From: Candidatus Omnitrophota bacterium
GTDB lineage: Bacteria > Omnitrophota > Gorgyraeia > Aquiviventales > Aquiviventaceae
Assembly (NCBI GenBank): GCA_016198905.1
Contig: JACQHR010000032.1
Coordinates: 74,390 to 138,389 of the forward strand
DNA length: 64,000 bases
Direction of reading: 5' to 3'
Position numbers and translations under genes: made by a program. Shown here one piece after another: positions 8,934 through 27,349 of this stretch (positions are counted from its first letter, which is position 1; the number at the start of each line of letters is the position of its first letter). Under the pieces are notes generated by a model. That model saw only the letters and a list, made by a program, of their open reading frames with translations. It did no database searches and was not told where the DNA came from.

Positions 8934-11464
8934 GGATTGTGATTGTGGCACCAGAGGTGTTTCCGGTTCCACCGATCCGAGGCGGGGCGGTGGAGACCGT
9001 CATCGAGGAAATCTCCGCGCAGTTCCGTGACCACAAGGTAACCATTCTCGGCATTGCCGACGCGTCACTGCCGGTGCAAGAGACGAAGGAGCATCGGACA
9101 TATCGCCGTTGGAAGCGCACGGTCATTGATCGACTCTTGCTCTCGACGTGGAAGCTGCCGTTCAAACAGAGCAACTCGCCGTGGTACTACTGGCCCTACC
9201 AGCATTGGATCGCCAGGCAGGTGCAACGGCTGCGTCCCGACGTCGTGTGGGTGCACAGCCGCATCCAATTTGCGCCGGCGATTCGCCGCGCCGCCCCTCA
9301 CGCGCGGATGATCGTCAGCGTCCATCAACTGAGCACGCTGCGCGATGAGCGCGTCTGGCAGCAAGCGCGCGTCGCGTGTTGTGATGTGATCGCCGGTGTC
9401 AGCCAATTCATGATCGAGGCCATCGCTGCGCGGTATCCATGGACGCAACCCAAGACGCACGTGCTCTCAAACGGCGTTGACGTGACAGCCTATCAGCCGT
9501 GGTGGGCGCAGTCGGCCAGGCGCGAGCGGATGCGCCGCGAGCAGGGCTGGGGTGACGCGCCGGTGATCTTGTATGCCGGGCGGCTCGTCGAGCAAAAGGG
9601 CGTGCATGTGCTCGCCGATGCTTTCAAACAACTGGTAAGGGGTGAGGGGCGGGAGACAGGGGGCGCGGGATCCAACACGAAACCAATGCTGGTCATTGCC
9701 GGCGGCCACACGTACTCCGATGGGACAGAAACCGACTATATCAGGCAGTTGAAGCGCACGCTTGAGCCGCTGGGATCGCAGGTCGTCTGGCTGGGGTATC
9801 AACCGTCGAGCGCGCTGGTGAGCCTGTACGCGGCCAGCGACGTCGTCGTCGTCCCATCAATCAATCCGGAAGCGTTTTCCATGGTCACGGTTGAAGCGAT
9901 GGCCTCGGGTCTGCCGGTCGTTGCCTTCGCGCACGGCGGCCCAGCGGAGATCATTCGCCACGGCATCGATGGGTTCTTGGTGCCGGTCTCCCGCGGCGCG
10001 GAGGGTCTGGCCGAGGCGCTGCAAGCGTGCGTCAGCAACACCACCCTGCGGGAAGCCATCGGCCGCGAGGCCAGACGGACGGTAGAGGAGCGCTTTACGT
10101 GGCAGCGTGTGGCAGAGAGCTTCCTCAAATTGACTCAGGGACAAGGGACAGGGGACAGGGGGCGAGGGAATGCCCTTCCTACGCCCCGCGCCCCGCGCCC
10201 CGCGCCCCAGACACGCGCCGTCCCTATTCTTATTGCTGAGTCAGGATCAGGCTACGGAGGCAGCGCGAAATACCTCAGCGAGCTGGTGTCGCTGCTGGAT
10301 CGGCGACGCTTCCACGCGCAGGTGGTGGCGGCTGAAGAGGGGCCGTTCATTCGCAAGGTCAAAGAGCAGGGAGTGCCAGTAGCACTGAGGCCAAGTTGGA
10401 GATTCGCTTGGGGGCAGGGGGCGGGAGACGAGGGGCGGGGGAAGGGCCAGCACACAGCACTCAGCACGAACGTGAAACATGAAACGCGAAACGTGAAACG
10501 AACGTCGCATGTCCGGTTCGCGCTGGTTGCTGCTACACAGCTTTTGATCATGGTTCCAGCAATTGCCCTCTGGTTGAAGTGGCGGAGGATCCGGCTGGTG
10601 CATCTGAATAACGAGATCCTCTCGCACGTGCCGCTGGCGCTCGGAGCGAAACTCGCCGGCTGCCGCGTGGTGTGCCACCTGCACGGCTGGCGTCCGTTCA
10701 CGAGGCTGGAGCGCGCTGTGGCCGGTGTCGTTGATGAGTTCGTCTGCATTTCGGAGGCTGGCGCGCGGTACTTCGAATCGCAACTGCCGCATCGCCGGGT
10801 GGCCGCGATTCCCAACGGTATTCTGCTCAATGGTCAGTTGGACGGCCTTGACGTGAAACGAGCGCAGGTCCGTCGGCAGTTGGGGATCCAGCCCCATGAC
10901 GCGGTCATCGCCATCATCGGGCGCTTGGTGCCGTGGAAAGGCCAGGCAGTGTTCTTGAAGGCGTTGGCGGATGTCAGCCAGCGACACCCGGACGTGGTCG
11001 GCCTCATCGTGGGGCACGATGCCTCGCCAGGGCAGAGCTATCTGACACAGTTACAGTCGACTGCGCGTGAGCACGGCCTCGCTGAGCGTGGGCGCGTGCA
11101 CTTTGTCCCGTGGCTCGAGGACGTGTGGGGCATTTATGCCGCGGCGGACATCATCGTGCACGCTTCGACGCAGCCGGAGCCGTTCGGACTCGTGCTCATT
11201 GAAGCGATGGCGGCGGGCAAGCTCGTGATTGCCACGCGATCCGGTGGAGTCGTCGATATCGTCACGGATGGCCGGACAGGACTGCTGGTTGAGCCGGGCG
11301 ATCCGGATGGGCTGGCGCGCGCCATCACGCAGGTGGTGACTGATCCTTCGCGCGCCGCTGCGCTGGCTGAGGCCGGCCGGCAGCGCGCGCGAGACGTGTT
11401 CACCATGGAGCGCAACGCGCAGGCAGTCGCGCAGGTCTATCAGCGGCTGATGGTGTGCCGATGA
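8930..11464 (+). CDS. Double GT4 glycosyltransferase (two complete GT-B modules joined through element E3)
   Basis: Module 1: MRIVIVAPEVFPVPPIRGGAVE...VVPSINPEAFSMVTVEAMASGLPVVAF. Module 2: ILIAESGSGYGGSAKY...ASTQPEPFGLVLIEAMAAGKLVIATRSGG. ATGA overlap at 8930. Contains E2, E3 and E4 in frame. Confidence 0.85.
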   Translation: MRIVIVAPEVFPVPPIRGGAVETVIEEISAQFRDHKVTILGIADASLPVQETKEHRTYRRWKRTVIDRLLLSTWKLPFKQSNSPWYYWPYQHWIARQVQRLRPDVVWVHSRIQFAPAIRRAAPHARMIVSVHQLSTLRDERVWQQARVACCDVIAGVSQFMIEAIAARYPWTQPKTHVLSNGVDVTAYQPWWAQSARRERMRREQGWGDAPVILYAGRLVEQKGVHVLADAFKQLVRGEGRETGGAGSNTKPMLVIAGGHTYSDGTETDYIRQLKRTLEPLGSQVVWLGYQPSSALVSLYAASDVVVVPSINPEAFSMVTVEAMASGLPVVAFAHGGPAEIIRHGIDGFLVPVSRGAEGLAEALQACVSNTTLREAIGREARRTVEERFTWQRVAESFLKLTQGQGTGDRGRGNALPTPRAPRPAPQTRAVPILIAESGSGYGGSAKYLSELVSLLDRRRFHAQVVAAEEGPFIRKVKEQGVPVALRPSWRFAWGQGAGDEGRGKGQHTALSTNVKHETRNVKRTSHVRFALVAATQLLIMVPAIALWLKWRRIRLVHLNNEILSHVPLALGAKLAGCRVVCHLHGWRPFTRLERAVAGVVDEFVCISEAGARYFESQLPHRRVAAIPNGILLNGQLDGLDVKRAQVRRQLGIQPHDAVIAIIGRLVPWKGQAVFLKALADVSQRHPDVVGLIVGHDASPGQSYLTQLQSTAREHGLAERGRVHFVPWLEDVWGIYAAADIIVHASTQPEPFGLVLIEAMAAGKLVIATRSGGVVDIVTDGRTGLLVEPGDPDGLARAITQVVTDPSRAAALAEAGRQRARDVFTMERNAQAVAQVYQRLMVCR
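9637..9669 (+). repeat. E2: solo G-rich arm inside GT4 module 1
   Basis: AAGGGGTGAGGGGCGGGAGACAGGGGGCGCGGGA matches the left-arm consensus and is translated in frame as RGEGRETGGAG. No C-rich partner follows. Confidence 0.8.
10136..10208 (+). repeat. E3: G-arm/C-arm palindromic element fusing two GT4 cistrons
   Basis: Left CAGGGACAAGGGACAGGGGACAGGGGGCGAGGG, loop AATGCCCTTCCTA, right CGCCCCG x3 + CGCCCC. Translated as GQGTGDRGRGNALPTPRAPRPAP with no stop. Confidence 0.85.
10410..10504 (+). repeat. E4: chimeric three-block heptamer element inside GT4 module 2
   Basis: G-arm GGGGGCAGGGGGCGGGAGACGAGGGGCGGGGGAAGGG, then CAGCACA CAGCACT CAGCACG, then AACGTGA AACATGA AACGCGA AACGTGA AACGAAC (the E1-type GTGAAAC arm). 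In frame as GQGAGDEGRGKGQHTALSTNVKHETRNVKRT. Confidence 0.85.
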
Positions 11465-12957
11465 GCGTCGTCAACCAAACCGCAGCCCGCGCAGGCGCAC
11501 GCGCCATACCCCCGCTGCACACCGTGGTCGACCGCCGCATCTGGACGTTTGTCGCGCTCATCGGATTCCTCGGCTGGCTCGTCATGAAGGAAATCACGCT
11601 GCCCTCCGGTCTCATGGCGGCTTGTGCGGGGCTGGGATTGCTCGGGCTGTTCATGGTCAGCGTCCAGCGGCCGGAGCTGTCGCTGTACGTGCTCGTGGCA
11701 TACCTGCCGTTCAGCCGGCTCCTCGTCGGAGATTTCGGCACCGAAGCGTACGCCTTCAACCTCACGAACATCCTGACGCTGTGGGTCCTTAGCGCCTATG
11801 TGCTGCGTTGCATGTCGCAAGGCCGGCAGCCCTTCCAATCCGCCCCGATGAGTCGCCTCGTCCTGGCGTTCTGCGCGCTGAGCGGATTCTCGCTGCTGCA
11901 GGGAGGCTTTGCGTACGGCTCCTGGTACTTCTGGCATTACCTCACTCCGCTGAAGCAGTGGCTGACGCCGATCTTCTTTTACTTTCTGGCGCTCTGGGTG
12001 GTGCGGGATCGGAAAGTTCTCAAGACGGTCGTGGTGCTCATGATGGTCGCCGTCACGGTGGTAGCGCTCATGGCGATCCGGGACTATCTGAACAACTCGG
12101 GCAGCAGCCTCGAGAAATCCCGGGTCGGCGGGATCGCCGAGCAGCCCAACACGCTGGGGGCGTTCTTCGTGTACTACATGTTCTTGTTCGCCGGCTTCTT
12201 CCTGACCTATCGCAAGAAGTTCAAGGTGTGGGGGCTGCTCGTTCCCTTTCTGCTGTGTTTCCGCGGCATCATGGTGACATTTTCCCGCGGGGCCTATTTC
12301 GGATTCGCCGCCGGCGGCCTCGGAGCGTGTTGGCACCGCAATAAGGCGCTGTTTGTGGTCGCCGCCGCGCTGTTATGGTTTGCCGTCATGAATCCCTGGA
12401 TGCTGCCGAAGGGGATTCGGTATCGGATGGGGCAAACCGTCGTCAGCCACGGCAGCGACAACGCACCGGGCGACGCGCCGATCGAGGATACCTTGGAAGC
12501 CAGCGCCGGAAACCGCGTGCGCATTTGGCGGGCGACCATCGAGATGATCAAGGACCATCCGTGGTGGGGGGTGGGCTACGGGGCGTTTCCCGCCTACATC
12601 GGGGTGTACACCGGCGGGCACTTCGAGGCGGTCGATGCCCATAACACGTATTTGCTCCTTGCCGCCGAGTTGGGGATCCCAATACTGGTCGTGTTCTGCG
12701 TGGTGATCCTCGTGGCGTGGTATCACACCAGGCGACTCTACCTGGGGACCCACGACTTCGCTATGAAGGCCATCACCCTAGGTTTCCTCGCCGGGCTGGA
12801 AGGGCTCATTGTGGTGAACATGTTCGGCTCGCGGATGGATGACCAGGCGGTCAGCAGCTACTTTTGGATCTTGTGCGGCCTCATCATGCGCGGCGTGTTG
12901 ATCGAGCGGGAAGAGATGTTGGGGGCATGGGGCGCGAGACGTGGGGCGAGGGCATAG
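11461..12957 (+). CDS. O-antigen ligase / Wzy-like polytopic membrane protein (paralog 1)
   Basis: About 10 or more hydrophobic segments. Central GIMVTFSRGAYFGFA and periplasmic-loop ...HNTYLLLAAELGI (Wzy_C-like). ATGA overlap with the upstream gene. The C-terminal tail LGAWGARRGARA is encoded by the E5 left arm. Confidence 0.8.
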   Translation: MSVVNQTAARAGARAIPPLHTVVDRRIWTFVALIGFLGWLVMKEITLPSGLMAACAGLGLLGLFMVSVQRPELSLYVLVAYLPFSRLLVGDFGTEAYAFNLTNILTLWVLSAYVLRCMSQGRQPFQSAPMSRLVLAFCALSGFSLLQGGFAYGSWYFWHYLTPLKQWLTPIFFYFLALWVVRDRKVLKTVVVLMMVAVTVVALMAIRDYLNNSGSSLEKSRVGGIAEQPNTLGAFFVYYMFLFAGFFLTYRKKFKVWGLLVPFLLCFRGIMVTFSRGAYFGFAAGGLGACWHRNKALFVVAAALLWFAVMNPWMLPKGIRYRMGQTVVSHGSDNAPGDAPIEDTLEASAGNRVRIWRATIEMIKDHPWWGVGYGAFPAYIGVYTGGHFEAVDAHNTYLLLAAELGIPILVVFCVVILVAWYHTRRLYLGTHDFAMKAITLGFLAGLEGLIVVNMFGSRMDDQAVSSYFWILCGLIMRGVLIEREEMLGAWGARRGARA

Positions 12958-12997
12958 TCATATGCCAACCATACCCCCACCCCCCGCCCCCCGCCCC
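12919..12997 (+). repeat. E5: palindromic element with upstream stop and downstream start codon in its loop
   Basis: Left TTGGGGGCATGGGGCGCGAGACGTGGGGCGAGGG, loop CATAGTCATATGCCAACCATA (TAG 12955-57, ATG 12962), right CCCCCACCCCCCGCCCCCCGCCCC. Confidence 0.85.
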
Positions 12998-14344
12998 ATA
13001 CTTGGTTGTATCTTGAGTCAATTCCCGCGATACGATGAGGCGTTCATTCTGCGCGAGCTTGTCGCGTTGTCGCAGGACTCGCCGCGGCTCGTGATCTTCT
13101 CGCTGCGTCCGTGCCGCGATCGCGTGATCCACGAGCAGGCGAAAGCCCTGCAGCCGCAGACAGTCTACGCGCCCTTCGTGTGGTCATGGCAGGTCTGGCG
13201 CAGCCACGCGCATGTCCTTCAGCACAATCTGAGAGGATATCTTCGCGCGCTTGGATGGATCATCAGCCGGCATTGGCGGCATCCGGTGATTCTGGTGAAG
13301 ACGCTGGCATTTTTCCCAAAGACCGTGCACTTCGCGAGGCTGGCCCAACAGCGGGGCGTCACGCATGTGCATGCGTTTTGGGCGACGTACCCGGCGGCGG
13401 CGGCGATGATCATGCGTGAGCTGACCGGCATCCCATTTAGCATGTCCGGCCACGCGCATGATATTCACACGATCAATCCGACGCTGACCGAGAAGATGCA
13501 GCATGCGCGCTTTGTCGTGACCTGCACGCAGGCGAATCGTGACTATTTGTTATCGTTAGTCAATAGTCATGGGGCAAGGGGCGGGAGACAGGGGGCAGGG
13601 ACAACCAAAACTATTGTGGAAGGTTTTTCCACGCCCCCCGTCCCCCGCCCCCCGTCCCATGTTATGGTGAGCTACCACGGCGTCGATCTTTCCCGCTTCG
13701 CCGCGCGGCCGAAGGATCACGGGCCGGTGTGCCGGATCCTCGCGGTGGGCAGCCTGTTGCCGTGCAAAGGGTATGAGACGCTGATTGAGGGCTGCACGCG
13801 GCTGCGTGAGCGCGGCGCGGCGTTTCACGTGACCATCGCCGGCGGCGGGCCGCTCGAACGCGCGCTGCGCCAGCGGATCGCGAAGCATGCGCTTACGCAG
13901 CAGGTGACGATGACGGGCTTTGTCAGCCAGGAAACGGTCGCAGCGCTCTATCAGCAAGCGCACCTCGTGATCCTGCCCTTGGTGTCCAAGATCCATTGGG
14001 GCATCCCGAACGTCCTGATCGAAGCGCTGGCTACGAAGACGCCGGTCATCTGCTGCGATCTGCCGTCGATGCGCGAGCTGGTGGTGCACGGCGAAAGCGG
14101 CTGGATCATCCCTGAGAACGACCCCAACGCGTTAGCGACTTCAATCGTGACGCTCTGGAAAGACGCCGCGTTGCGGCAGCGGATCGCCGACGCAGGGTAT
14201 CAGCGCGTGGTCGAGCGGTTTTCGCTGGAGGAAACTGGACGAAAGCTACGAGAGATCTTTAGTCAGGGGCAGGGGGCGGGAGACAGGGGGCAGGTGCAGA
14301 CCGATTTTCCCGCGCCCCGCGCCCCGCGCCCCAAAGTTCCTTAA
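12962..14344 (+). CDS. Glycosyltransferase family 4
   Basis: GT-B C-domain: ...ILPLVSKIHWGIPNVLIEALATKTPVICCDLPSMRELV. Start ATG lies in the E5 loop (alternative GTG 12941). Contains E6 in frame, and E7 forms its C-terminal tail. Confidence 0.8.
   Translation: MPTIPPPPAPRPILGCILSQFPRYDEAFILRELVALSQDSPRLVIFSLRPCRDRVIHEQAKALQPQTVYAPFVWSWQVWRSHAHVLQHNLRGYLRALGWIISRHWRHPVILVKTLAFFPKTVHFARLAQQRGVTHVHAFWATYPAAAAMIMRELTGIPFSMSGHAHDIHTINPTLTEKMQHARFVVTCTQANRDYLLSLVNSHGARGGRQGAGTTKTIVEGFSTPPVPRPPSHVMVSYHGVDLSRFAARPKDHGPVCRILAVGSLLPCKGYETLIEGCTRLRERGAAFHVTIAGGGPLERALRQRIAKHALTQQVTMTGFVSQETVAALYQQAHLVILPLVSKIHWGIPNVLIEALATKTPVICCDLPSMRELVVHGESGWIIPENDPNALATSIVTLWKDAALRQRIADAGYQRVVERFSLEETGRKLREIFSQGQGAGDRGQVQTDFPAPRAPRPKVP
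13568..13661 (+). repeat. E6: palindromic element in frame inside GT4
   Basis: Left CATGGGGCAAGGGGCGGGAGACAGGGGGCAGGG, 30-nt loop, right ACGCCCCCCGTCCCCCGCCCCCCGTCCCATG. Translated as HGARGGRQGAGTTKTIVEGFSTPPVPRPPSH. Confidence 0.85.
14264..14332 (+). repeat. E7: palindromic element forming the C-terminal tail of GT4
   Basis: Left CAGGGGCAGGGGGCGGGAGACAGGGGGCAGG, loop TGCAGACCGATTTTCC, right CGCGCCCCGCGCCCCGCGCCCC. Translated as GQGAGDRGQVQTDFPAPRAPRP, followed by the TAATG junction at 14342-14346. Confidence 0.85.
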
Positions 14345-15204
14345 TGGCCATTCTGCGCACAGTCCTCAGCGATATCACCTATCATGCGAGGCGATTGACA
14401 CCTGGCGATGGAGAAGGATTGCGCATCCTGATGTACCATCGCGTCACCGATGCGCATCCCGGGAATCGGCTGTGCGTGCCGGTGGCGCGGTTTGCGGATC
14501 AGATGCGGTGGCTGGCGGAGCAGGGGTACCGCACAATCTCATTCGCTGAGGCGGTGGAGTTAGTGAGGGGGCAGGGGGCAGGGGGCGGGAGACGGGGGAA
14601 TAGCCGACAAGCAGAATCTGCGGCATTCCCTCGCCCCGCGCCCCGCGCCCCGCGCCCCAAACTGATTGTCCTGACATTTGATGACGGCTTCGAGGATAAT
14701 TTTCTCTACGCCTATCGCGCGCTGGCGCAGTACGGCTTCACCGGCTGCTTCTTCGTGCCAAGTGCCTTTATCGCGTCCGGACAAACCGGGCATGAGGCGG
14801 TCGATCAACCGATGAGCTGGGCGCAATTGAGTGAGCTCGCACGGGAAGGCCACGAAGTAGGAGCGCATTCGATCAGCCACGCGAAGCTCACACACATTGA
14901 TCCGGTGCAGATGCGCGAGGAAGTGCGAGGATCGAAAGAAGCGATCGAGCAAGGACTGCAGCAGCCCGTGAGATTCTTCTGTTACCCGTCGGGTGACTAT
15001 AATGCGGCCGTGAAACAGGCGGTGCGCGACAGCGGCTACGACGGGGCGTGCACCGTGGAGCCGGGCGCGAACCGTTCCGGGGCTGATCCCTTTGCGTTGA
15101 CACGCACGGAGATCAGCGCGTTTGATTCGCTGTGGGATTTTGAGAAGAAGATCGCGGGCGCGTTTGATTGGATGCATCGCGTCGTCCAATGGACGAAACG
15201 ATGA
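14344..15204 (+). CDS. Polysaccharide deacetylase (CE4/NodB-type), paralog 1, with in-frame E8 insertion
   Basis: LTFDDGFEDN, GAHSISH and YPSGDYN motifs. TAATG 1-nt overlap with the upstream gene. Confidence 0.85.
   Translation: MAILRTVLSDITYHARRLTPGDGEGLRILMYHRVTDAHPGNRLCVPVARFADQMRWLAEQGYRTISFAEAVELVRGQGAGGGRRGNSRQAESAAFPRPAPRAPRPKLIVLTFDDGFEDNFLYAYRALAQYGFTGCFFVPSAFIASGQTGHEAVDQPMSWAQLSELAREGHEVGAHSISHAKLTHIDPVQMREEVRGSKEAIEQGLQQPVRFFCYPSGDYNAAVKQAVRDSGYDGACTVEPGANRSGADPFALTRTEISAFDSLWDFEKKIAGAFDWMHRVVQWTKR
14565..14658 (+). repeat. E8: palindromic element in frame inside the deacetylase
   Basis: Left GAGGGGGCAGGGGGCAGGGGGCGGGAGACGGGGG, loop AATAGCCGACAAGCAGAATCTGCGGCATT, right CCCTCGCCCCGCGCCCCGCGCCCCGCGCCCC. 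Translated as GQGAGGGRRGNSRQAESAAFPRPAPRAPRP. Confidence 0.9.
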
Positions 15205-16466
15205 TCAGACATCAGACCTCAGACATCAGACCACAGTCGGACTCAAGACCCAAGACCCAAGACCCAACAGGTGCATTTTCAGCCCCGAGTCTTGAGTCCC
15301 GAGTCTTGAGTCCCGAGTCTCGGGTCCCAGTGAAGGTCATATTCATCATTTGGTCGCTTGGATTAGGCGGCGCAGAACAGGTTGTGATCCGGTTAGCAGC
15401 CGGGCTTGATCGTCGCCGATTCGCGCCGATCATTTGCTGCATGAACGAGCCCGGGCCGTTTGCCACGCAAGCGATCAGCCGCGGCATCGAGGTGATTGCG
15501 CTGCATAAGCGCGGCGCGATCGATCTGGGCATGCTGATCAGGCTCACGCGCGTGATGCGGCAGCGTCGGCCCGGCATCGTGCACACGCATCTGTGGGGCG
15601 CCAGCTTCTGGGGGCGTCTCGCGGCGCGTCTGGCGCGCGTCCCGGTAGTCATCGTCCATGAGCACGGCATGCAGCCCTATCGCGGGGCCTTCCATTTTTT
15701 CTGCGATCGATGGTTAGCGCGGGTCACGTCGCGCATCCTGTTTGCCTCGCAGCACGTCCTGCAGATCTACCGGGCAAAGACGGCCGTCGCGGAATCCAAG
15801 TGCATGGTGATTCCGAATGGTGTCGCGGTGTTACGGCTGCCGGATCGAATCGCGGCTAGGCGCGCGCGCGGATGGTCGCCGGACGATCAAGTGATCCTCA
15901 GCGTCGGGCGGCTCTCGCCGGAAAAAGGCTATGAGGATTTGCTGAAGGCCTTCGCGCTCATCGCTTCCCGCGCGCCGCACGCGCGGCTGGTGCTCGTGGG
16001 AGATGGCGCGCAACGCGCGGCGCTTCAGACGCTGCAGGCGCAGTCAGGGCTCAATGGCCGCGTGACGTTTGCGGGCCGGCAAGAGGATGTCACGGGATGG
16101 CTGGCCGCGGCGGATCTCTACGTGCAGCCCTCGCATCGAGAAGGGCTGCCGCTGGCGGTGCTGGAGGCGATGGCCGCCGGCGTGCCGGTGGTGGCCACCG
16201 ACGTCGGCGATCTGCGCTACGTCATCACCGAGGGACGCACCGGCTACCTCGTGCCGGCCCGGCAGCCGGACACGCTGGCTGCGCGATTGGTCGACGTCCT
16301 GGAACATCCCGAGCAACAGCCGCGCATCGCCGAGGCCGCGCGAGCGCTCGTGCGCACGCGCTTCTCCGACGAACAGATGATCCGCGCCATTGAGCGCGTG
16401 TATGAGGACGAGCTGTCGTGTTGGGGCAAGGGGCAGGAGACGGGGGGCGGGGGAGGGAACCGCTGA
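15201..16466 (+). CDS. Glycosyltransferase family 4
   Basis: VKVIFIIWSLGLGGAEQVVIRLAAGL... and QPSHREGLPLAVLEAMAAGVPVVATDVGD. ATGA overlap at 15201. The first ~43 codons are E9 heptamer repeats, so the true start could be later (e.g. GTG 15331). Confidence 0.8.
   Translation: MIRHQTSDIRPQSDSRPKTQDPTGAFSAPSLESRVLSPESRVPVKVIFIIWSLGLGGAEQVVIRLAAGLDRRRFAPIICCMNEPGPFATQAISRGIEVIALHKRGAIDLGMLIRLTRVMRQRRPGIVHTHLWGASFWGRLAARLARVPVVIVHEHGMQPYRGAFHFFCDRWLARVTSRILFASQHVLQIYRAKTAVAESKCMVIPNGVAVLRLPDRIAARRARGWSPDDQVILSVGRLSPEKGYEDLLKAFALIASRAPHARLVLVGDGAQRAALQTLQAQSGLNGRVTFAGRQEDVTGWLAAADLYVQPSHREGLPLAVLEAMAAGVPVVATDVGDLRYVITEGRTGYLVPARQPDTLAARLVDVLEHPEQQPRIAEAARALVRTRFSDEQMIRAIERVYEDELSCWGKGQETGGGGGNR
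15205..15328 (+). repeat. E9: variant heptamer element (different unit sequences)
   Basis: TCAGACA TCAGACC TCAGACA TCAGACC; then ACTCAAG ACCCAAG ACCCAAG ACCC; loop GGTGCATTTTCAG; then GAGTCTT GAGTCCC GAGTCTT GAGTCCC GAGTCTC GGGTCCC. GGACTCAAGAC is complementary to GTCTTGAGTCC. Confidence 0.8.
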
Positions 16467-16495
16467 ATGCGGAACGCGGAGTGCGGAATCGAGGA
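16422..16495 (+). repeat. E10: G-rich arm followed by a TGCGGAA heptamer block (no C-arm)
   Basis: TGGGGCAAGGGGCAGGAGACGGGGGGCGGGGGAGGG ... TGCGGAA CGCGGAG TGCGGAA TCGAGGA. The GT4 stop TGA 16464-66 lies between the two blocks. Confidence 0.8.
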
Positions 16496-16540
16496 AGCAA
16501 TTGAGACCTAACGCGAAGCGAACGTCACGTTGGGGCGGCG

Positions 16541-18025
16541 ATGAGGAGTGACGCGGTCTTGCCGGCAGCGATGGTGAGGCGCCTGCTGCCCGAGGTGGAT
16601 GAGCGGGCGTGGATGTTCGTGCTCGCGATCGGCGCCTTCGCCGTGTTGGGGCTCAAAGAGATGCCGTTATCGGCACCCCTGGTCTTGGGTCTCTTCGCTG
16701 CCGGTGTGGTCGGGTTGATTGCGGCCGGCTGGCTGGGACCCGAAGCACCGCTGTACGCGCTCATCGCGTACTTGCCCTTCAGCGGGCTGCTGGCCGGTGG
16801 CGCGTCCATCCCGTTTCTCAACCTGACGAATTTGCTTATCCTACTCATCGTGGTCAGCCACATTTGGCGGCAGCGTCGGAATGAGCTGCAGGTCTTGACG
16901 TCTGCGCCGATGAATGCGGTCATCGCGCTTTTCGCCGCGCTGGCGGTTCTGTCGTGGATGCGCGCCGGATGGATGTATGGCGGCTGGTACGCGTCGACGC
17001 ATGCCGTGGCTCTCTTGCGTTGGCTGCGCCCGATGGCGTTCTACTTCGTGGCGCTGTGGGCCGTGCGGGATGCGCGCGCACTAAAGACCGTGCTTGCGCT
17101 CATCGCGGTGGCGGTGACGGTCGTCGCGCTGATGGCGCTGTGGGAGTATCTCGATCGCGCCGGCAGCACCATCGAGCGCTCGCGCGTGCAGGGAATCGCC
17201 GGCGAAGCCAACCGCATGGGGGCGTTCTTCGTGACGTACATGTTCCTGTTCCTTGGCTATTTCTTCGTGACACCGCTGCGTCGCTACGGGTGGCTGATGC
17301 TCGTGCCGTTTCTCTTGTGCGTGCGCGGCATCATGGTGACCTTCTCGCGCGGGGCGCATGTGGCGTTCGCTGCGGGGGTGCTCGTCGCTTGTTGGATGCG
17401 CAGCAAGTGGCTCTTCGTGGTTGCGGCCGCCGCCGCGGCATTCATCATCACGCATCCGGCCCTGCTGCCGGGAGGATTTCGCACCCGCATCGAGCAGACC
17501 ATTCGTCCTGGTCAGCGACTCGACCTGGACGCCGGCACCTCGCAGGAGCTCTCGCGGCAATTGGAGCCCAGCGTCGGGCGACGGGTTGAAGCATGGAACG
17601 GCGGCTTGGCGATGGTGCGCGCGCATCCCTGGGTTGGCGTCGGGTTCGGAGGATTCCGGCGGTTCATTCCCCACTACACGCAGGGCCGAGTGAGCTCCAT
17701 GGCGGCGCACAACACGTACCTGTGGCTGGCGTCGGAGATGGGCATCCCCACGCTGCTGGTGTTTCTGCTGTTTCTCGACCTGCTGGCGTACCACACGGTG
17801 TGGCTGTATCGGCACAGCCAGGATGTCTGGCTGCGGGCTCTTGGCCTTGGCGTGTTGGCCGGCGCCGCGGCGCTGTCTGTGGCCAACGGTTTCAGCGAGT
17901 GCCTCGATTCCTCCGAGGAGGTCGTGGGTTATTTCTGGATCCTCTGCGCGCTCGTCATGAGAGGCGTCCTGCTTGAAAAACAACAGGCTGGGGCAAGGGG
18001 CGTGAGACAGGGGGCGGGGGAATAG
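16541..18025 (+). CDS. O-antigen ligase / Wzy-like polytopic membrane protein (paralog 2)
   Basis: Collinear with 11461..12957 (e.g. GIMVTFSRGAHVAFAAG, AHNTYLWLASEMGIP). The tail GARGVRQGAGE is encoded by the E11 left arm. Confidence 0.8.
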   Translation: MRSDAVLPAAMVRRLLPEVDERAWMFVLAIGAFAVLGLKEMPLSAPLVLGLFAAGVVGLIAAGWLGPEAPLYALIAYLPFSGLLAGGASIPFLNLTNLLILLIVVSHIWRQRRNELQVLTSAPMNAVIALFAALAVLSWMRAGWMYGGWYASTHAVALLRWLRPMAFYFVALWAVRDARALKTVLALIAVAVTVVALMALWEYLDRAGSTIERSRVQGIAGEANRMGAFFVTYMFLFLGYFFVTPLRRYGWLMLVPFLLCVRGIMVTFSRGAHVAFAAGVLVACWMRSKWLFVVAAAAAAFIITHPALLPGGFRTRIEQTIRPGQRLDLDAGTSQELSRQLEPSVGRRVEAWNGGLAMVRAHPWVGVGFGGFRRFIPHYTQGRVSSMAAHNTYLWLASEMGIPTLLVFLLFLDLLAYHTVWLYRHSQDVWLRALGLGVLAGAAALSVANGFSECLDSSEEVVGYFWILCALVMRGVLLEKQQAGARGVRQGAGE

Positions 18026-18437
18026 CAATGCCTATGACGTCTGCAGCGATCACAACCTTCAAAGACCTTCGCGTCTGGCAGGAAGGCATCCAGTTGGTCA
18101 AGGAGATCTATGCCCTCTGCGTCAAATTGCCGAAGGAAGAACTCTACGGCTTAGCGAGTCAGATGAAGCGCGCGGCGGTGTCGGTTCCATCCAACGTAGC
18201 AGAAGGCCATGCTCGAAAACACCGCGCCGAGTACAGACAGTACGTGTATATTGCGATCGGCTCGCTTGCGGAACTCGAGACGCACGTGCTCATTGCTAAG
18301 GAGTTGAACTTGTCTAATGGTGATGAGCTGACCCCGGTCCTTACACGCATTGACCGTTTGCGAGGGATGTTGCTGACGCTCGGGAGACGACTCGGATGAC
18401 GCCGTCCCCTCGCCCCTCGCCCCTCGCCCCTCGCCCC
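17989..18437 (+). repeat. E11: G-arm/C-arm palindromic cassette carrying a second four-helix-bundle gene
   Basis: Left TGGGGCAAGGGGCGTGAGACAGGGGGCGGGGG (17989-18020). Right (CCCCTCG)x4 + CCCCA (18406-18437). About 25 of 32 positions are complementary by hand alignment. Confidence 0.9.
18028..18399 (+). CDS. Four-helix-bundle protein (23S rRNA intervening-sequence protein family), second, divergent copy
   Basis: FKDLRVWQEGIQLVKEIY...QMKRAAVSVPSNVAEGHARKH..EYRQYVYIAIGSLAELETH. Starts 2 nt after the ligase TAG and has an ATGA overlap with the next GT4. Confidence 0.85.
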   Translation: MPMTSAAITTFKDLRVWQEGIQLVKEIYALCVKLPKEELYGLASQMKRAAVSVPSNVAEGHARKHRAEYRQYVYIAIGSLAELETHVLIAKELNLSNGDELTPVLTRIDRLRGMLLTLGRRLG

Positions 18438-20717
18438 ATTCGCGTGATGTTCGTGATCTGGTCGCTCGGCCTCGGCGGAGCGGAGCAGGCGGTGATCCGG
18501 CTGGCCGCGGGCCTTCGGCGCGAAGGGTTCGAGCCGTTGATCTGCTGTCTCAACGAGCCGGGTCCCTTCGCTGTGCAAGCGCAGGCCGCCGGCGTGCCCG
18601 TCGTGGCGCTGCACAAACGGTGGCGCTATGACGCGCGCGTGCTCTGGCGCTTGATGCGGTTGATGCGGCAGTGGCATCCGGACGTCGTGCACACGCATCT
18701 GTGGGGCGGCAACGCGTGGGGGCGGACGGCGGCCTGGCTGGTGGGTGTTCCGGTCATCGTCACGAGCGAGCGGAATCTGGATCCTTGGAAACGCTGGTAC
18801 TATTTTGTGATCGACCGCGTGCTCGCAGCGCGGACCACGACGTTGCTGGCCGTCTCCGAGTCCGTGCGGGCGTTCTACGAGCAGCACGGGGTCGGCCGCG
18901 GCCGCTGGCAAGTCTGCTACAACGGCGTCGATATCGCCGACGTAACACCCCGGCAGCGAGGAGCCGTGTTCGCGCAACTGGGCGCGCAGCATGGCGAGCC
19001 GGTCGTCGGCTTCATCGGACGCTTGGCTTCGGCAAAGGCTCCGGATGTGTTCGTCGAGGCGGTCGCACAGGCGCGCCGAACACTCCCTTCGCTGAAAGCG
19101 CTCATCGTCGGCGACGGGCCGCTGCGCAGCGAGGTTGAAGCCTTGGCGCGTCGATTGGGATTGGATGGGCATCTCGTGGTGACCGGCGTGCGCGAGGATA
19201 TCCCGGAGCTGCTGGCGGGGATGGACGCGCTGATGGTGTCGTCCGAGCGCGAGGGGCTCTCCATGGCGATGTTGGAGGCCATGGCGGCAGGAGTCCCGGT
19301 TATCGCGACTCGAGTAGGAGGCACTCCTGAACTCATCGAGCCGGGGATGACCGGACTGCTTGCGCCTCCAGGCGCGCCCGACGCATTGGCGCGCCAGTTG
19401 GTGGCACTCCTGACCAATCCCGCGCACGCGCAGGCCATTCGCGATGCGGCCCGCGCGCGAGTGGCGAAGGATTTTTCCATGCAGCGCGTGGTGGCGACGC
19501 ATGCAGCAGTGTACCGCCGCGGCCTCAAGCAGGCCAACCGTGCAGGACTCAGTGATCGCGTCAAAGAGGCGGCGGCATCGCTTCCCATCGCTCACCGCGC
19601 TCGCCTCCGCGTCATGCATGTCATCGACGATCTCGGACTCGGAGGCGCGCAGCGGCAGCTCGTGGAGCTCGTCAAGGCGTTCCCGCGGGATCGCTATGAG
19701 CTGCACGTTGTGAGTCTCTCGACGACGAAGACGGACTACGCGGAGGCGCTCCACGCAGCGGAGATTCGCCTGACGCAAATCCCGCAGGCCGGCAAATGGG
19801 ATGGCCGTTGTTTTTCGACGCTCTCCACGCTGATCAAAACCGAGAAGCCTTCCATCGTCCACACGTGGCTCTTTACCGCCGACCTCTATGGCCGCATGGC
19901 GGCGTGGGTGGCGCATGTGCCGGTCATCATCAGCGCGGTGCGCAGTGTGGAGCCGGATAAGCCCGCGCACTACGTCGTGGTGGATCGCGTCCTGCGCAAC
20001 ATCACCAGTGCCTTCACCGTCAATGCGCGCGCGATTGGCGAGGTGCTGACGGCGCGCGAGCATGTGCCGACGGAGAAGATTCATACGATCTATAACGGGC
20101 TCGATCTGCGCGCCCTGGATCCATCCCGCGTGAATGGAGCGATTCGGCGCGCCATCGCCGTCGGCGCCGACGTCCCCCTGATCGGGATCGTCGGGCGTCT
20201 AGCGCCGGTGAAGGATCACGCCACGTTTCTGCGCGCGGCAGTGCGCGTGCATCGTGAAGCGCCACAGGCGCGGTTTCTCATCGTCGGCAACGGTTTGCTT
20301 CACGGCGAGCTCGAGCAGTTGAGCCAATCATTGGGCCTGAGCGATGTCGTTCGCTTTCTCGAGAGCCAATCCAACGTAGCCGAGGTGTTCGCCGCGCTCG
20401 ATGTCGTCGTCGTGTCCTCCCTCTATGAAGGCTGCTGCAACGTGATCCTCGAAGCGATGGCGATGGGCAAGCCCGTGATCGCCACAGCCGTCGGGGGCAA
20501 TCCTGAGCTCATCAGCGACGGGCAAACCGGGCTGCTCGTGCCCGTGGGCGATGATGCGAAGCTGGCCGAGGCGATGGTGAGCCTGCTGCGTGATCCGCAG
20601 CGCGCGCAGGCGATGGGCCGCTCGGGGCGAGCGCGCGTGGAGTGCGACTTCGCCATCGAGCGGATGGTCGTCGCAACCGATCGCGTCTATCAGAAACTGT
20701 TGAGTCGCGCCCCATGA
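18396..20717 (+). CDS. Double GT4 glycosyltransferase (natural tandem fusion, no element at the joint)
   Basis: Module 1: IRVMFVIWSLGLGGAEQAVIRLAAGL...SSEREGLSMAMLEAMAAGVPVIATRVGG. Module 2: LRVMHVIDDLGLGGAQRQL...SSLYEGCCNVILEAMAMGKPVIATAVGG. The N-terminal MTPSPRPSPLAPRP is the E11 right arm (alternative ATG 18447). Confidence 0.85.
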   Translation: MTPSPRPSPLAPRPIRVMFVIWSLGLGGAEQAVIRLAAGLRREGFEPLICCLNEPGPFAVQAQAAGVPVVALHKRWRYDARVLWRLMRLMRQWHPDVVHTHLWGGNAWGRTAAWLVGVPVIVTSERNLDPWKRWYYFVIDRVLAARTTTLLAVSESVRAFYEQHGVGRGRWQVCYNGVDIADVTPRQRGAVFAQLGAQHGEPVVGFIGRLASAKAPDVFVEAVAQARRTLPSLKALIVGDGPLRSEVEALARRLGLDGHLVVTGVREDIPELLAGMDALMVSSEREGLSMAMLEAMAAGVPVIATRVGGTPELIEPGMTGLLAPPGAPDALARQLVALLTNPAHAQAIRDAARARVAKDFSMQRVVATHAAVYRRGLKQANRAGLSDRVKEAAASLPIAHRARLRVMHVIDDLGLGGAQRQLVELVKAFPRDRYELHVVSLSTTKTDYAEALHAAEIRLTQIPQAGKWDGRCFSTLSTLIKTEKPSIVHTWLFTADLYGRMAAWVAHVPVIISAVRSVEPDKPAHYVVVDRVLRNITSAFTVNARAIGEVLTAREHVPTEKIHTIYNGLDLRALDPSRVNGAIRRAIAVGADVPLIGIVGRLAPVKDHATFLRAAVRVHREAPQARFLIVGNGLLHGELEQLSQSLGLSDVVRFLESQSNVAEVFAALDVVVVSSLYEGCCNVILEAMAMGKPVIATAVGGNPELISDGQTGLLVPVGDDAKLAEAMVSLLRDPQRAQAMGRSGRARVECDFAIERMVVATDRVYQKLLSRAP

Positions 20718-23700
20718 ACGTGATCAAACTTCTGAAACTGGCGTTTGTGGCCGCGCATGCCGGCGTCATCGGGCTGGTGATCCTCCGGGCGTGGAGCCTA
20801 AGCCTTGCCGAATCGCGCGCGGTCGCGGGGCGGTTTCTGCGCGTCGCCCTGACGCGGTTGCTCCTGGTCGTGATGGTGGAGCTCAGCCCGTATGTCTACG
20901 CCAGGTTCGTGGAGCCCAACATGGTGGTCGTCACGCGCCTGAGGGTGGCGCAGGATCAACTGGCGCACGCGTTGGGCGGTCGGCGCGTGGTGCAGATCAC
21001 CGATCTGCATATCACGACGATCGGCGCTCGCGAGCGGCGGCTCATCCAGCGCGTCAATCGGCAGCGCCCGGACTGGATTGTCATCACCGGCGATTTGATC
21101 AATGACGCCGCAGGCTGGCGCGCAGCCCTCGAGGTCATCGGCCGCCTGAAGGCGACGCAAGGGATTTGGGTCGTTCCCGGCAATACCGATAACGCGATCC
21201 TCAGCCCGGACTCGTTTGCCCAGGGCCTGGCCGGTGTCAACGCCAAGGTGCTGCGCAACAGCCGCATCCGAATGGCCGAGACCGACGCGTGGCTGGTAGG
21301 CGTCGACGATCCGGTGGAGCGCCGCGACAGCCTCGACGAAGCGCTCAAGGGAATGGATCGCAGCGCGCCACCTCCCATGATCCTGCTCGCCCACTCGCCG
21401 GACATCCTGGATGCTGCGGTTGCCGCGCGCATCCCGCTGGTGCTGGTGGGCCACACGCATGGAGGCCAGCTGGGTATTCCCTGGCTGCGCCGGTTGTCCT
21501 CCTACGCCGACCGCGGTCCCTACGTCGGCGGCGGACGCTATCACGTGGAGCAGACCACGATGTATGTCAACCGCGGCATCGGCTGGAAAGAAATCCCGCA
21601 CCGATTCCTTGCGCCGCCCGAAGTGCTGGTCATCGAGTTTAGACCGCAGGGAAAGCGAGCCGCACCGACGGCGGAGAGCCCGCCGGTTCGCGCGGAAGTC
21701 TGGCTGAGCGACTTCGAGCGCGATGGCGAAGAAGCGGTGCTGTGGAACGTGTTCAACGCATTCGCCACCCACAGCCGCGAGCACGCGAGCCACGGGCAGG
21801 CCTGCGCGAAGGTCACGCTGAAAGCCGGGTTCTCATCTTCCTACGCGTTGGAGGACGACTTTCTCACGCGCGATCCCGCGCGCCGCGACTGGACGCGCGA
21901 CGAAGCGCTCGCCTTCGATGTGTACAACGCGCAATCCGTTCCGGAGCCGCTGATCGTGCGGATCCGCGACGACGGAAAAGGCCTGTACGAGGAGACGATA
22001 ACCCTGCCAAGCCGAGTCCCGCACACGGTCACGCTGTCGCTCGCAGATCTGAGCCGCTCGCTTGATCTCTCGCGCGTCAGTGGGCTCGCGCTCTTGCGCA
22101 AAGACTCGACGCACGACGTCGTCCTGTACCTCGATGCGGTGCGGCTGCTGCCGCGGCGCGCGGGTGCGCCGGCTTCCGGCGTGTCGACGGGGGCGGCCAC
22201 CGAAGAGCCAAGTGCGCTTGAGGACGCCGCCGTCACCCCGCACATGTTGGGCCGCTGGCACTTCGAGCATGATCTCGTCTCGCGCTGGCGCGCGGCCGAT
22301 CCTGCCACAGGACGTTCGGTTGTGCGCGTGCCGCTTACCGTCGTCGGGCCGCAGATGCCGCTCTCCGTCGGGCAGCCGATCGCAGGCGGGATTCCATTTG
22401 CGATGGGGCAGTTGGCGGCGAACGCCGCAATCCGCGTGCATGACATGAACGGGGCCGTCTGGCCGGCGCAGACGCGGCCCTTGGCGGTGTGGGAAGACGG
22501 CAGCGTGAAATGGCTGCTCGTCACCGCCCAGGTGCCGATGACGGCGCGCAGCCGGCAGCTCTGGCTCGAATACGGCGAACCGGTTGCGGCCGACCCGGCC
22601 CCTCAGCCGCGCGTGCGTGTGGACGACACGCCGCAAGCCGTGACCGTCACGACCGGCCCGCTTCGCTTCACGGTCAGCCGGCGGCACTTTACGCTCTTTG
22701 ACTCAACCTTCGTCGACAGGAACCGCGATGGCGTGTTTGCGGAGGCGGAGCGGCTGGCCAGCGCCGGAGATTTGGTGCTGAAGCGCGGCGACACTGAATT
22801 TCGCAGCTCGCGCGACACGGTCTCTTACATGCTGCAGGTCGAAGAAGCCGGCCCTGTGCGCGCGACGCTGAAGGCCAGCGGGTGGTTCCGCGATGCGGCG
22901 GGCCGCGGATTCTGCCAGTTCACCGTGCGGCTGCAGGCCTTCGCCGGGCTGCCGCAGGTGCGGGTGTACCACACCTTCATCTATACCGGCTATCCGGCGA
23001 ACCTCTACAACCCCAACTACGAGGGCATCAAGCTGCCGGCCAACGAGACGATCCAGGACATCAGCCTCGAGCTGCCGGTCACACTCGGCGCCACGACGCA
23101 GCTGATCACCGCGGATGAGCAAGGCCTGGTGACCGCGCCGCTTACCAACCCGACGAGCATCTCGCAGCTGGCGCACGACGCGTATCAGATTCGGCAGCAA
23201 GGTGCGGCATCACCGCTGCGCGCCGGCGCGCACCATGAGGGCTGGCTGCTCATGCAGGATAGCAACGCCGGAGTCATGGTAGGTGTGCGCGACGCCTGGC
23301 AGCAGTATCCCAAGGCGTTCGAGGTTGACGCAGCGTCGCGTCGGCTGATCGTGCGCCTGTGGCCGTCATCGGCGGGAGACTTGAACTTGGAGACCGGAGC
23401 CGACGCGTACGGGCCGGATGCGGTCGCGCGCGGCAGCGCCTTCGGATTGGCGAAAACGCATGAGCTGTGGGTCGGGTTTCTCGGAGCGGTGATCGACGGC
23501 TCGACGGCCCGCGCGCTGGCCGGGTTGTGGCAAGAACCCTGGTTGCTGTCGGCGCATCCGGCGTGGGTCCAGGATACCGACGCGCTCGGCACCGTCGGTC
23601 CAGCAGAGATGGATCGGTTTCCCGAGCAGGAAGCGATGCTCGAGGACGTCTTCGGCTGGGCAAAGCGGCAGCCGCAGCGCTTCGACTGGTACGGGATGCT

Positions 23701-26383: not shown

Positions 26384-26456
26384 GACGCGGGGCAGGAAAA
26401 ACCAAATTTGGTATTGAGGATTTTCCCACGCCCCGTGCCCCCGTCTCCCGCCCCTT
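26366..26456 (+). repeat. E12: palindromic element at the giant-protein / deacetylase junction
   Basis: Left AAGGGGCAAGGGGCATGAGACGCGGGGCAGG. The loop has a GGAAAA...TTTTCC clamp and an internal CCAAATTTGG palindrome. Right CACGCCCCGTGCCCCCGTCTCCCGCCCCTT. Confidence 0.85.
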
Positions 26457-26476: not shown

Positions 26477-27265
26477 ATGCGCATTGTAGCGCTAACCTTT
26501 CACGATATTGTTCCTAACGGCAACGACGCCGCGATCAAGAGCGATGAGTTCTACCGCATCACCACGAGTGAATTCGAGAAGCTCCTCTCACAGTTGCGCA
26601 AGCTCGGCTATCAAACGGTCAGCTCCCGCACGTTTCGCGCCTGGCAGCAAGGCTCAGGCACGCTGCCCGAGCGCACCGTCGTCCTCACGTTCGATGACGG
26701 CCACGCGAATCATTTCGAGCTCGTCGCGCCGTTGCTGGTGCGATATCGATTCACCGGCACGTTCTTCGTCACGAGCGGATTCATCGGCACACCCGGCTAT
26801 ATGAATTGGGAGCAGCTGCGCAAGCTCGTGTTCCTCGGCATGGAGATCGGCTCGCATGGCGCCACCCATCGGCCGCTGACGCAACTAGCTCGCGCGGCAG
26901 TGGTCGACGAGCTTGCGTCATCGAAGACGCTCTTGGAGCAGCGGCTGGGCATTCCGGTTCAGGCGATGGCAGCACCCGGCGGGTTCTGGAATCACACCAT
27001 AGCCGATGCGTCCAAAGAGGCGGGCTACGAGGCGGTGTGGGTCTCGACGATCGGCACGAACGGCAAGGAGACGAGCCCGCTGGCGTTGCGCCGCGTCGTC
27101 GTGCGGCAGCCGTTTTCCGTCGAGCGGATCGTGGCGATGGTCGAGGGCTGGCAACCGGCCTTCTGGTGGGCGGCGAATCAACAATTGCTCATTCGGCTGC
27201 TCAAGCGCGTCCTCGGCGTCTATTGGTACGAACAACTCAAGCGCCGCCTCGTTCCCAATGCCTAG
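26477..27265 (+). CDS. Polysaccharide deacetylase (CE4/NodB-type), paralog 2, without element insertion
   Basis: LTFDDGHANH, GSHGATH and APGGFWN motifs. Confidence 0.85.
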   Translation: MRIVALTFHDIVPNGNDAAIKSDEFYRITTSEFEKLLSQLRKLGYQTVSSRTFRAWQQGSGTLPERTVVLTFDDGHANHFELVAPLLVRYRFTGTFFVTSGFIGTPGYMNWEQLRKLVFLGMEIGSHGATHRPLTQLARAAVVDELASSKTLLEQRLGIPVQAMAAPGGFWNHTIADASKEAGYEAVWVSTIGTNGKETSPLALRRVVVRQPFSVERIVAMVEGWQPAFWWAANQQLLIRLLKRVLGVYWYEQLKRRLVPNA

Positions 27266-27341
27266 AGGGAGCGTGGGGCGTGGGGCGTGGGGCGTGGGAA
27301 AACCGCTTTTCCCTCGCCCCCCATCTCCTGTCCCTTGCCCC
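27266..27341 (+). repeat. E13: palindromic element at the deacetylase / GT2 junction
   Basis: Left AGGGA + (GCGTGGG)x4. Inner clamp GGGAAAA-CCGC-TTTTCCC (27296-27313). Right CTCGCCCCCCATCTCCTGTCCCTTGCCCC, which is close to the reverse complement of the E10-type G-arm. Confidence 0.85.
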
Positions 27342-27349
27342 AATCTGTG

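Follow-up and report, generated by a model that had tools for sequence, protein, structure and literature searches.

We analysed a 64,000-nucleotide stretch of Candidatus Omnitrophota DNA (contig JACQHR010000032.1, positions 74,390 to 138,389; hereafter the window, whose own numbering is used unless another locus is named), with a focus on E5, an inverted repeat lying where a Wzy-like gene meets a gene for a GT4 glycosyltransferase. E5 belongs to a dispersed family of inverted heptamer-repeat elements and is not a device specific to this junction. It is a 'solo' copy lacking an open reading frame (ORF), in that the PF05635/TIGR02436 ORF carried by a full-length sibling is absent between its arms. 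We think it probable that E5 is simply a tolerated copy, and that the presence of a stop and a start codon in its loop is a by-product of arm composition and of purifying selection on the operon, as opposed to the layout of a purpose-built riboregulator. E5 itself is an ordinary member of its family; the family, and its tie to four-helix-bundle (4HB) genes of the type found in 23S rRNA intervening sequences (IVSs), is the more interesting result.

E5 is read on the plus strand and has three parts. Its G-arm (12921–12952, GGGGGCATGGGGCGCGAGACGTGGGGCGAGGG) comprises about 4.5 heptamer units (GGGGGCA, TGGGGCG, CGAGACG, TGGGGCG and AGGG) and codes for the 12 C-terminal residues of the Wzy-like protein (LGAWGARRGARA), which ends ...IEREEM-LGAWGARRGARA*. 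The loop (12953–12973; 21 nt, CATAGTCATATGCCAACCATA) holds the Wzy stop codon, TAG 12955–12957, and the probable GT4 start, ATG 12962–12964. The C-arm (12974–12997) is a period-7 array of 3.4 units of CCCCCGC (Tandem Repeats Finder, 94% matches), and codes for a Pro-rich N-terminal extension of the GT4 (PPPPAPRP, within TIPPPPAPRP). The TAG closes the Wzy-like ORF (11455–12957, plus strand), which belongs to the O-antigen ligase/polymerase family (Wzy_C match, PF04932, 6.7e-19). Four nucleotides after this stop, the ATG opens MPTIPPPPAPRPILGCILSQFPRYDE..., the beginning of a GT4 of the 'SQFPRYDE' family (12962–14344, plus strand), which also contains an in-frame sibling of E5 (13563–13662) and an element-encoded C-terminal tail (14261–14336). 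GAGGG at 12948–12952, Shine–Dalgarno (SD)-like as judged from sequence, lies 9 nt 5′ of the AUG. A preliminary description of this DNA had assigned the G-arm to the end of the Wzy-like protein, the TAG and ATG, 4 nt apart, to the loop, and the C-arm to the first residues of the next GT4 (TIPPPPAPRP), and this anatomy is upheld in full. The description had also proposed that a hairpin with both codons at its apex could couple or gate translation of the downstream gene, or could indicate a site of processing. The close stop and restart agrees with the ATGA overlap of element-free orthologs (see below), while the idea of a dedicated regulatory hairpin does not stand, E5 being a copy of a dispersed repeat.

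That E5 belongs to a family is evident within the window. The 26-nt G-arm pattern GGGGCANGGGGCNNGAGACNNGGGGC, which E5 matches with 0 mismatches at 12922–12947, has 15 matches in the window at ≤3 mismatches (7 of them exact), compared to 0 expected; these statistics rule out a chance origin of the E5 pattern. All 15 lie within 9.6–27.4 kb, a glycosyltransferase/Wzy/deacetylase cluster that holds about 12 copies of the element. In the left arm of the element there are ∼4 GGGGCNN units, always with one GAGAC unit among them, and in the right arm ∼3–4 NNGCCCC units. Period-7 arrays of ≥3 units are all found within 1–27.4 kb, in the glycosyltransferase/Wzy/deacetylase cluster, with none between 28 and 64 kb, where the window codes for hydrolases, a PEP-CTERM protein, ABC transporters, a sigma-54 two-component system and regulators.

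Comparison with orthologous operons, which are syntenic (GT2, double GT4, Wzy, GT4, deacetylase, GT4, Wzy), indicates what the junction looks like when the element is missing. Neither L075 nor L077 contains a heptamer array over 8–9 kb. In L075, the end of the Wzy gene and the beginning of the GT4 gene share the 4 nt ATGA (GCGCATGAGCC), giving proteins ...IERQRIREERTQRA* and MSRPVLGCILSQ..., and in L077 TAA is followed directly by GTG at the Wzy/GT4 junction. Neighbouring junctions in the window operon and in L075 also overlap by 4 nt. The Wzy tail reads QRIREERTQRA* in L075 versus LGAWGARRGARA* in the window, where, to judge from this comparison, arm-encoded peptide has taken the place of the native tail of Wzy and of the initial residues of the GT4. 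In a third operon, L079, one element lies at this Wzy/GT4 junction and a second lies within the GT4, at a site that is occupied in the window too.

This internal site, occupied in the window by the sibling at 13563–13662, is a hot spot for insertion, and many orthologs have no element there. The nominally 'empty' site in L077 (L077:4526–4615) reads GGGACAGGGGACAAGGTTTTC and resembles a two-unit scar of G-arm plus loop; the hot spot in L075 (L075:4535–4618) reads GGGACGTCC. These remains suggest old, decayed insertions as opposed to sites that were never occupied. The possibility that fused ORFs are artefacts of insertion was rejected for the double GT4, which is a single protein of 778–804 aa in element-free orthologs too.

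Several lines of evidence indicate that the arms are read by ribosomes. Relative to element-free orthologs, all five intragenic siblings compared (at 9633, 10137, 10405, 13563 and 14566; three in the double GT4, one in a GT4 and one in a deacetylase) are in frame and free of stops. That frame is kept in five of five speaks for translation of the arms and against obligatory excision of the RNA. Of 44 short copies in other genomes, 10 are buried well within long ORFs, and 7 more are read through from end to end by the upstream ORF, which terminates ≤30 nt past the C-arm.

For E5, the question turns on where the GT4 begins. The NCBI annotation of the same protein (P0001, 100% identical, 443 aa, MSQFPRYDE...) starts at TTG 13013. 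The LGxILSQFPRYDE core begins directly after the C-arm, and LGxIL, which lies 5′ of TTG 13013, is conserved in 20 of 20 aligned orthologs; the alignment calls for a start 5′ of 13001. Upstream of the core, the only canonical in-frame starts are ATG 12962 and GTG 12941. Because conserved residues precede TTG 13013 and only these two starts are available upstream, the C-arm is very probably translated as part of the GT4, and initiation in the loop would yield the N-terminal peptide MPTIPPPPAPRP. The database start was probably miscalled owing to the repeat, cutting off a conserved strand of the GT4.

The position of both codons in the loop is what the composition of the arms would lead one to expect. 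The arms are almost pure G+C, such that no TAA, TAG or TGA is possible, and the C-arm is also devoid of ATG, GTG and TTG. As the G-arm is stop-free, the first stop falls in the A/T-containing loop, and this is where the Wzy ORF ends; as the C-arm is start-free and the conserved core follows it directly, the GT4 must start in or before the loop. Among short copies, a stop and a start in the loop are seen in only 2 of 44. A solo copy at an unrelated udg–priA junction (L031:6260–6358) repeats the layout of E5, TAA-ACC-ATG, with the codons 3 nt apart. In five of five full-length copies of the G/C flavour, the stop of the 4HB gene overlaps a start (ATGA or GTGA), from which an open frame continues across the C-arm; this restart frame is in frame with the host gene in three cases (the window, L067 and L082), and reaches it via a relay ORF in L084. 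It is thus possible that the stop/restart layout was inherited from a full-length cassette.

How might the two genes be expressed across E5? Ribosomes translating the Wzy-like gene would melt the pairing between G-arm and C-arm and terminate at UAG 12955–12957. Reinitiation would then take place at AUG 12962, with the SD-like GAGGG 9 nt upstream, and the C-arm would be translated as the Pro-rich N-terminal extension of the GT4, approximately keeping the ancestral (ATGA) coupling. On untranslated mRNA, the E5 stem would hide the AUG. Coupling of Wzy and GT4 by termination–reinitiation is plausible given this arrangement of codons. Presumably, only arrangements that keep both genes expressed persist at the E5 junction, and we infer that insertion of E5 was nearly neutral.

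The folding data give little reason to view the hairpin as a selected structure. E5 alone (12919–12999, 81 nt) had a folding energy of −42.5 kcal/mol (z = −2.81), a value that 1 of 200 shuffles matched, and with its flanks included (12905–13010) z was only −0.67. The predicted stem contains ∼25 pairs, in a chain of short G–C helices of ≤6 bp split by internal loops. At the apex, a 6-bp stem formed by GGCATA (12951–12956) and TATGCC (12961–12966) pairs the AUG with bases overlapping the UAG. E5 and its siblings folded at −42 to −68 kcal/mol (z of −2.1 to −6.8). Duplex energies averaged over own arms and over arms taken from different copies were similar (−49.3 versus −49.9 kcal/mol, p = 0.72), and the own-arm pairing of E5 (−41.2 kcal/mol) ranked 38th of 43 copies. 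RNAalifold, applied to 29 copies, returned 16 pairs, nearly all of them invariant G–C, with a covariation term of −0.25 kcal/mol and changes on both sides in just 1 of the 16 pairs. Two copies in the window (10405–10500 and 16418–16496) have arms that are not complementary. Because own-arm duplexes are no stabler than cross-copy ones and covariation is close to nil, we read the pairing as generic: E5-type elements pair as G-units with C-units, with no positive sign of a maintained specific structure. A scan of 11000–15500 for intrinsic terminators and promoters gave nothing at E5, the tail of which (ATACTTGGTTG) contains no U-tract. There was no Rfam match at E5 at the gathering threshold, and a permissive Rfam scan of 12700–13200 gave only sub-threshold look-alikes of miRNA hairpins (≤31.6 bits compared to thresholds of 50–168). 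Gating by the E5 hairpin has no direct evidence in these data.

Outside the window, we scanned for the exact G-arm pattern, using one genome per species, and found 74 loci, mostly in Omnitrophota and in metagenome-assembled genomes of uncultured Planctomycetales. The usual form elsewhere is a 60–90-nt unit of G-arm, short loop and C-arm, in which the loop sequence is not conserved between copies. Both orientations of the element are free of stops. The exact 26-nt pattern was also seen in L006 and L036 (Nitrospirae, 38–42% G+C), L022 and L049 (Nostocales), and L071 (Saprospirales). In low-G+C genomes of other phyla, the pattern is for the most part embedded in longer tandem (GGGGCAN)n arrays that lack an obvious C-arm.

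The link of the family to 4HB genes is seen in the full-length sibling at 17989–18444 (plus strand). Its G-arm (17989–18021) is followed by TAG 18023–18025, the stop of a second Wzy gene (Wzy2), and then by a gene of 372 nt (18028–18399) encoding a 4HB/IVS protein (PF05635, 1.5e-34; TIGR02436, 5e-32). An ATGA overlap with ATG 18396 comes next, after which the C-arm, (CCCCTCG)4.6 at 18406–18437, is read into the next GT4. Close relatives of the 4HB protein at L067, L081, L082 and L084 bear the same arms. PF05635 is a large family of unknown function that includes Avd of diversity-generating retroelements (DGRs), and its four-helix-bundle protein has been reported to be pentameric.

To look at this association more broadly, we fetched 80 metagenomic loci encoding 4HB relatives (L081–L160), 72 of which had usable flanks. 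A period-7 array was present upstream of the gene in 59 of the 72, downstream in 64 and on both sides in 54. The density of arrays was 3.35/kb beside the 4HB gene versus 0.11/kb further off, a 30-fold difference. Upstream and downstream units were reverse complements of each other (≤1 mismatch) in 51 of 56 loci, compared to 30% for shuffled partners. There were 22 distinct heptamer unit sequences across these loci, and the number of units per array was narrowly distributed (median 4.1, interquartile range 3.9–4.4). Viewed from the G-arm, a 4HB gene adjoins only 3 of 88 instances, these being the three genuine full-length copies. E5 may have arisen from the full-length form by internal deletion. 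Stop-free arms are not a general design of 4HB elements; this idea was rejected, as many flavours contain stops (e.g. GAAAACT and TAGGGTA). Full-text literature searches turned up no general description linking PF05635 genes to inverted heptamer arrays. L067 and L082 carry a G/C-flavour element with a 4HB gene at the same yggS-like/proC junction in two organisms, with 4HB proteins that share just 49% and 70% identity with that of the window.

These associations raise the possibility, which we put forward tentatively and regard as far from established, that E5 and its siblings are non-autonomous copies of an undescribed cassette, in which a PF05635 (Avd-like) gene is enclosed by inverted arrays of ∼4 units, with at least 22 unit sequences across phyla, the whole being harmless in transcribed DNA and the arms being bound by the protein acting in trans. 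In rRNA, the arms of such a cassette would form a stem that RNase III would remove. In operons and ORFs, arms of the G/C flavour would be open in all frames, and the cassette would bring its own stop and overlapping restart. The constant number of ∼4 units would represent a putative binding site of the 4HB protein, active in trans on solo copies like E5.

A number of observations weigh against viewing E5 as a tolerated, deletion-derived copy with a restart in its loop. GTG 12941 offers an alternative GT4 start, and reinitiation at AUG 12962 is deduced from the sequence. At two sites, the window and L079 both bear an element and the closer ortholog L075 bears none, a distribution that would need site preference or repeated loss. 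The GAGAC unit is one-armed, with the mirror GTCTC found in only 5 of 44 C-arms (window 12922–12947 and 43 others, L002–L079), and among the 38 copies for which orientation could be decided, 30 have the GAGAC arm 5′ on the inferred coding strand and 8 do not (p = 0.0005). This asymmetry and orientation bias hint at a strand-specific constraint beyond that expected of neutral filler. No target-site duplication was evident in the flanks inspected, and the only linked gene is that of the 4HB protein, with no transposase. None of the short loops, including the 21-nt loop of E5, contains a remnant of the 4HB gene (88 regions downstream of G-arms), and the case for descent by deletion consists of the shared arms and a similar ATAG..ATGCC junction.

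We weighed four other explanations. In the first of these, RNase III would cut the stem formed by G-arm and C-arm, splitting the mRNA between Wzy and GT4 and setting the stability or stoichiometry of the halves. The architecture is that of an IVS (an inverted-repeat stem, a 4HB/S23p ORF in the loop and heptameric repeats), and IVS stems are cleaved by RNase III (PMC4990558); the strong folding of E5 and its siblings (down to −68 kcal/mol) and the bias toward one orientation on the coding strand, suggestive of a constraint at the RNA level, fit as well. Cleavage in the arms of E5 would, however, lose the Wzy stop and the only GT4 start codon, and the maintenance of five open, in-frame siblings in enzyme genes would be pointless were the RNA cut. 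Moreover, no helix in E5 exceeds 6 bp, as compared to the near-perfect 28-bp stem of the Coxiella IVS, translation through the G-arm should prevent folding, and in some copies the arms are non-complementary. We found no direct evidence for RNase III processing at E5 and consider it unlikely. Phase variation is less probable still. Here, slippage of the 7-nt units of the C-arm, or of its C6 runs, would shift the frame of the GT4, and the arrays together would give combinatorial variation of a surface polysaccharide. It is true that 7 is not a multiple of 3, that the array directly follows the only start codon, and that all period-7 arrays of the window are in the glycosyltransferase/Wzy cluster, with none in 28–64 kb; in addition, the number of heptamers differs among Coxiella strains (PMC4990558), and some 4HB-linked arrays have expanded to 7–11 units. 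But unit number is generally held at ∼4 (by the median and interquartile range above), four imperfect units are poor substrates for slippage, and the same element is also found between housekeeping genes, namely yggS–proC (L067, L082) and udg–priA (L031). Between L079 and L080, a single strain pair 99.955% identical, there were 0 indels in 4 arrays. The P0001 protein cluster has one member, and the window has no close relative in the databases.

The remaining two explanations concern structures other than a cleaved stem. If the G-arm, and on the opposite strand the complement of the C-arm, were to fold into a G-quadruplex (G4) or i-motif, transcription or translation could be modulated. G-rich heptamer repeats of Xanthomonas and Nostoc, often in convergent pairs, do form G4 in vitro (PMC4692102), and most sibling G-arms fit four G3+ tracts with N1-7 spacers. 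The E5 arm, on the other hand, reads G5-CAT-G4-CGCGAGACGT-G4-CGA-G3, and its 10-nt spacer CGCGAGACGT allows a relaxed motif only. Many 4HB-linked arrays are A/T-rich (AGTTTTC, GTCGTTG, GTATATC) and cannot form G4, which is hence not a property of the class, and no function for such repeats was found in PMC4692102. We regard a role for G4 as very improbable. A dedicated translational riboregulator, selected for the Wzy/GT4 pair and specific to this junction, would account for the pairing of the AUG within the apical 6-bp stem and for the 4-nt distance between stop and start. Yet the element is absent from the orthologous operons L075 and L077, near-identical copies are numerous in unrelated contexts, the arms show no covariation, and the loop sequence varies from copy to copy, all of which makes such a device exceedingly improbable.

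The other copies in the window, all on the plus strand except where noted, occur in a variety of contexts. Within the native double-GT4 protein, a G-arm-only copy lies in frame in the first GT4 domain (9633–9671), a sibling lies in frame in the inter-domain linker (10137–10212, QGQGTGDRGRGNALPTPRAPRPAPQ), and a chimeric copy (10405–10500) lies in frame in a GT4 domain, its G-arm being followed by (CAGCACA) and (AACGTGA) arrays. The sibling inside the E5-linked GT4 ORF (13563–13662) is read through in frame (...NSHGARGGRQGAGTTKTIVEGFSTPPVPRPPSHV...) and folds at −62.3 kcal/mol (z = −6.8). At the GT4/deacetylase junction (14261–14336), the element lies entirely within the upstream ORF, whose stop forms a TAATG overlap (14342–14346). 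The polysaccharide deacetylase carries a further in-frame sibling in its N-terminal region (14566–14662, −67.9 kcal/mol). At the deacetylase/GT4 junction (15204–15330) there is an inverted heptamer-array element of other flavours (ATCAGAC, GACCCAA / CTTGAGT-CCCGAGT), and at the GT4/Wzy2 junction a chimeric copy (16418–16496) in which the G-arm forms the C-terminal tail of the GT4 and is followed by a non-complementary (GAATGCG) array. Siblings also lie between a large hydrolase ORF and deacetylase-2 (26360–26456) and, in the opposite orientation, between deacetylase-2 and GT2 (27262–27345, minus strand, with the GAGA(C/T) arm on the minus strand). A second 4HB gene (1309–1659) has an element of its own (1273–1776), an inverted pair of (CGTTTCA)4.4 and (AACGTGA)4.6 with 25 of 25 positions complementary. 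Positions 20642–26383 form a single open frame of 1913 aa, with Metallophos, PcRGLX-like and GH123 matches, whose end falls within the G-arm of the 26360 copy; this frame may represent several genes joined in frame. Elsewhere in the window, 36498–36612 matches group II intron D1-D4 (RF02001, 44 bits, E 1.3e-05), the only Rfam match at the gathering threshold.

These results have practical and more general implications. Gene callers misplace starts and ends near such elements, and several proteins bear repeat-encoded tails and inserts. The E5 hairpin should not be taken as a bespoke regulator. More broadly, the window ties together three puzzles that have been treated separately: the 23S rRNA IVS, the PF05635 family and the long-noted overabundance of heptameric repeats among bacteria. 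Should the link between 4HB genes and heptamers hold genome-wide, it would offer a concrete, testable hypothesis for what the PF05635 protein binds, and would illustrate a selfish element spreading through operons and coding regions without polar effects.

Comparison with known systems places E5 in context. As in translational coupling at ATGA or TAATG overlaps, the E5 stop and start are close together (4 nt), and the element-free, ancestor-like state is an ATGA overlap; unlike in those cases, the codons of E5 are in the loop of a repeat hairpin, and the downstream protein very probably gains a repeat-encoded N-terminal extension. Repetitive extragenic palindromic (REP) sequences are 20–40 nt long, extragenic, marked by a GTAG/CGTC tag and associated with RAYT transposases, and REPs and the mosaic elements built from them (BIMEs) can affect mRNA processing. 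They are likewise dispersed, imperfect palindromes, co-transcribed in operons and biased in orientation, whereas the arms of E5 are ∼30 nt, built of repeats and very probably translated, and RAYT genes were not seen here. [quoted passage not shown] Siblings in the window similarly sit in ORFs with the frame kept and no stop, and E5 itself is a junction copy; the differences are that there is no sequence relation, that the arms are heptamer-periodic, and that the linked gene encodes a 123-aa 4HB protein and not a transposase.

Two described systems share the heptamers. G-rich heptamers of Xanthomonas (GGGAATC) and Nostoc (GGGGAYT) are often found in convergent pairs near ORF ends and have no known function (Rehm et al. 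2015; PMC4692102). The unit of the window differs in sequence, its arms have a fixed order of ∼4 units with GAGAC, in-frame intragenic copies are frequent, and the 4HB link is absent from PMC4692102; the 7-nt G-rich unit, the common occurrence of inverted pairs and the closeness to ORF ends are shared. In Coxiella, the 23S rRNA IVS has a 28-bp terminal stem that is cut by RNase III, a protein of the same family encoded in the loop, and tandem GACAGAT heptamers whose number varies among strains (PMC4990558). Unlike the IVS, which is found in helix 25/45 of 23S rRNA, E5 and its siblings are in mRNA, between or inside protein genes; there is no rRNA in the window, and E5 lies between the Wzy_C and GT4 ORFs. 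E5 also lacks an ORF, its arms are very probably translated, its stem is far less perfect, and excision by RNase III would be harmful here. The IVSs of Coxiella, Leptospira and others nonetheless resemble the heptamer elements in having a terminal inverted-repeat stem, a PF05635-family ORF in the loop of full-length copies and heptamers beside that ORF, and both are viewed as selfish insertions within transcribed DNA (PMC4990558).

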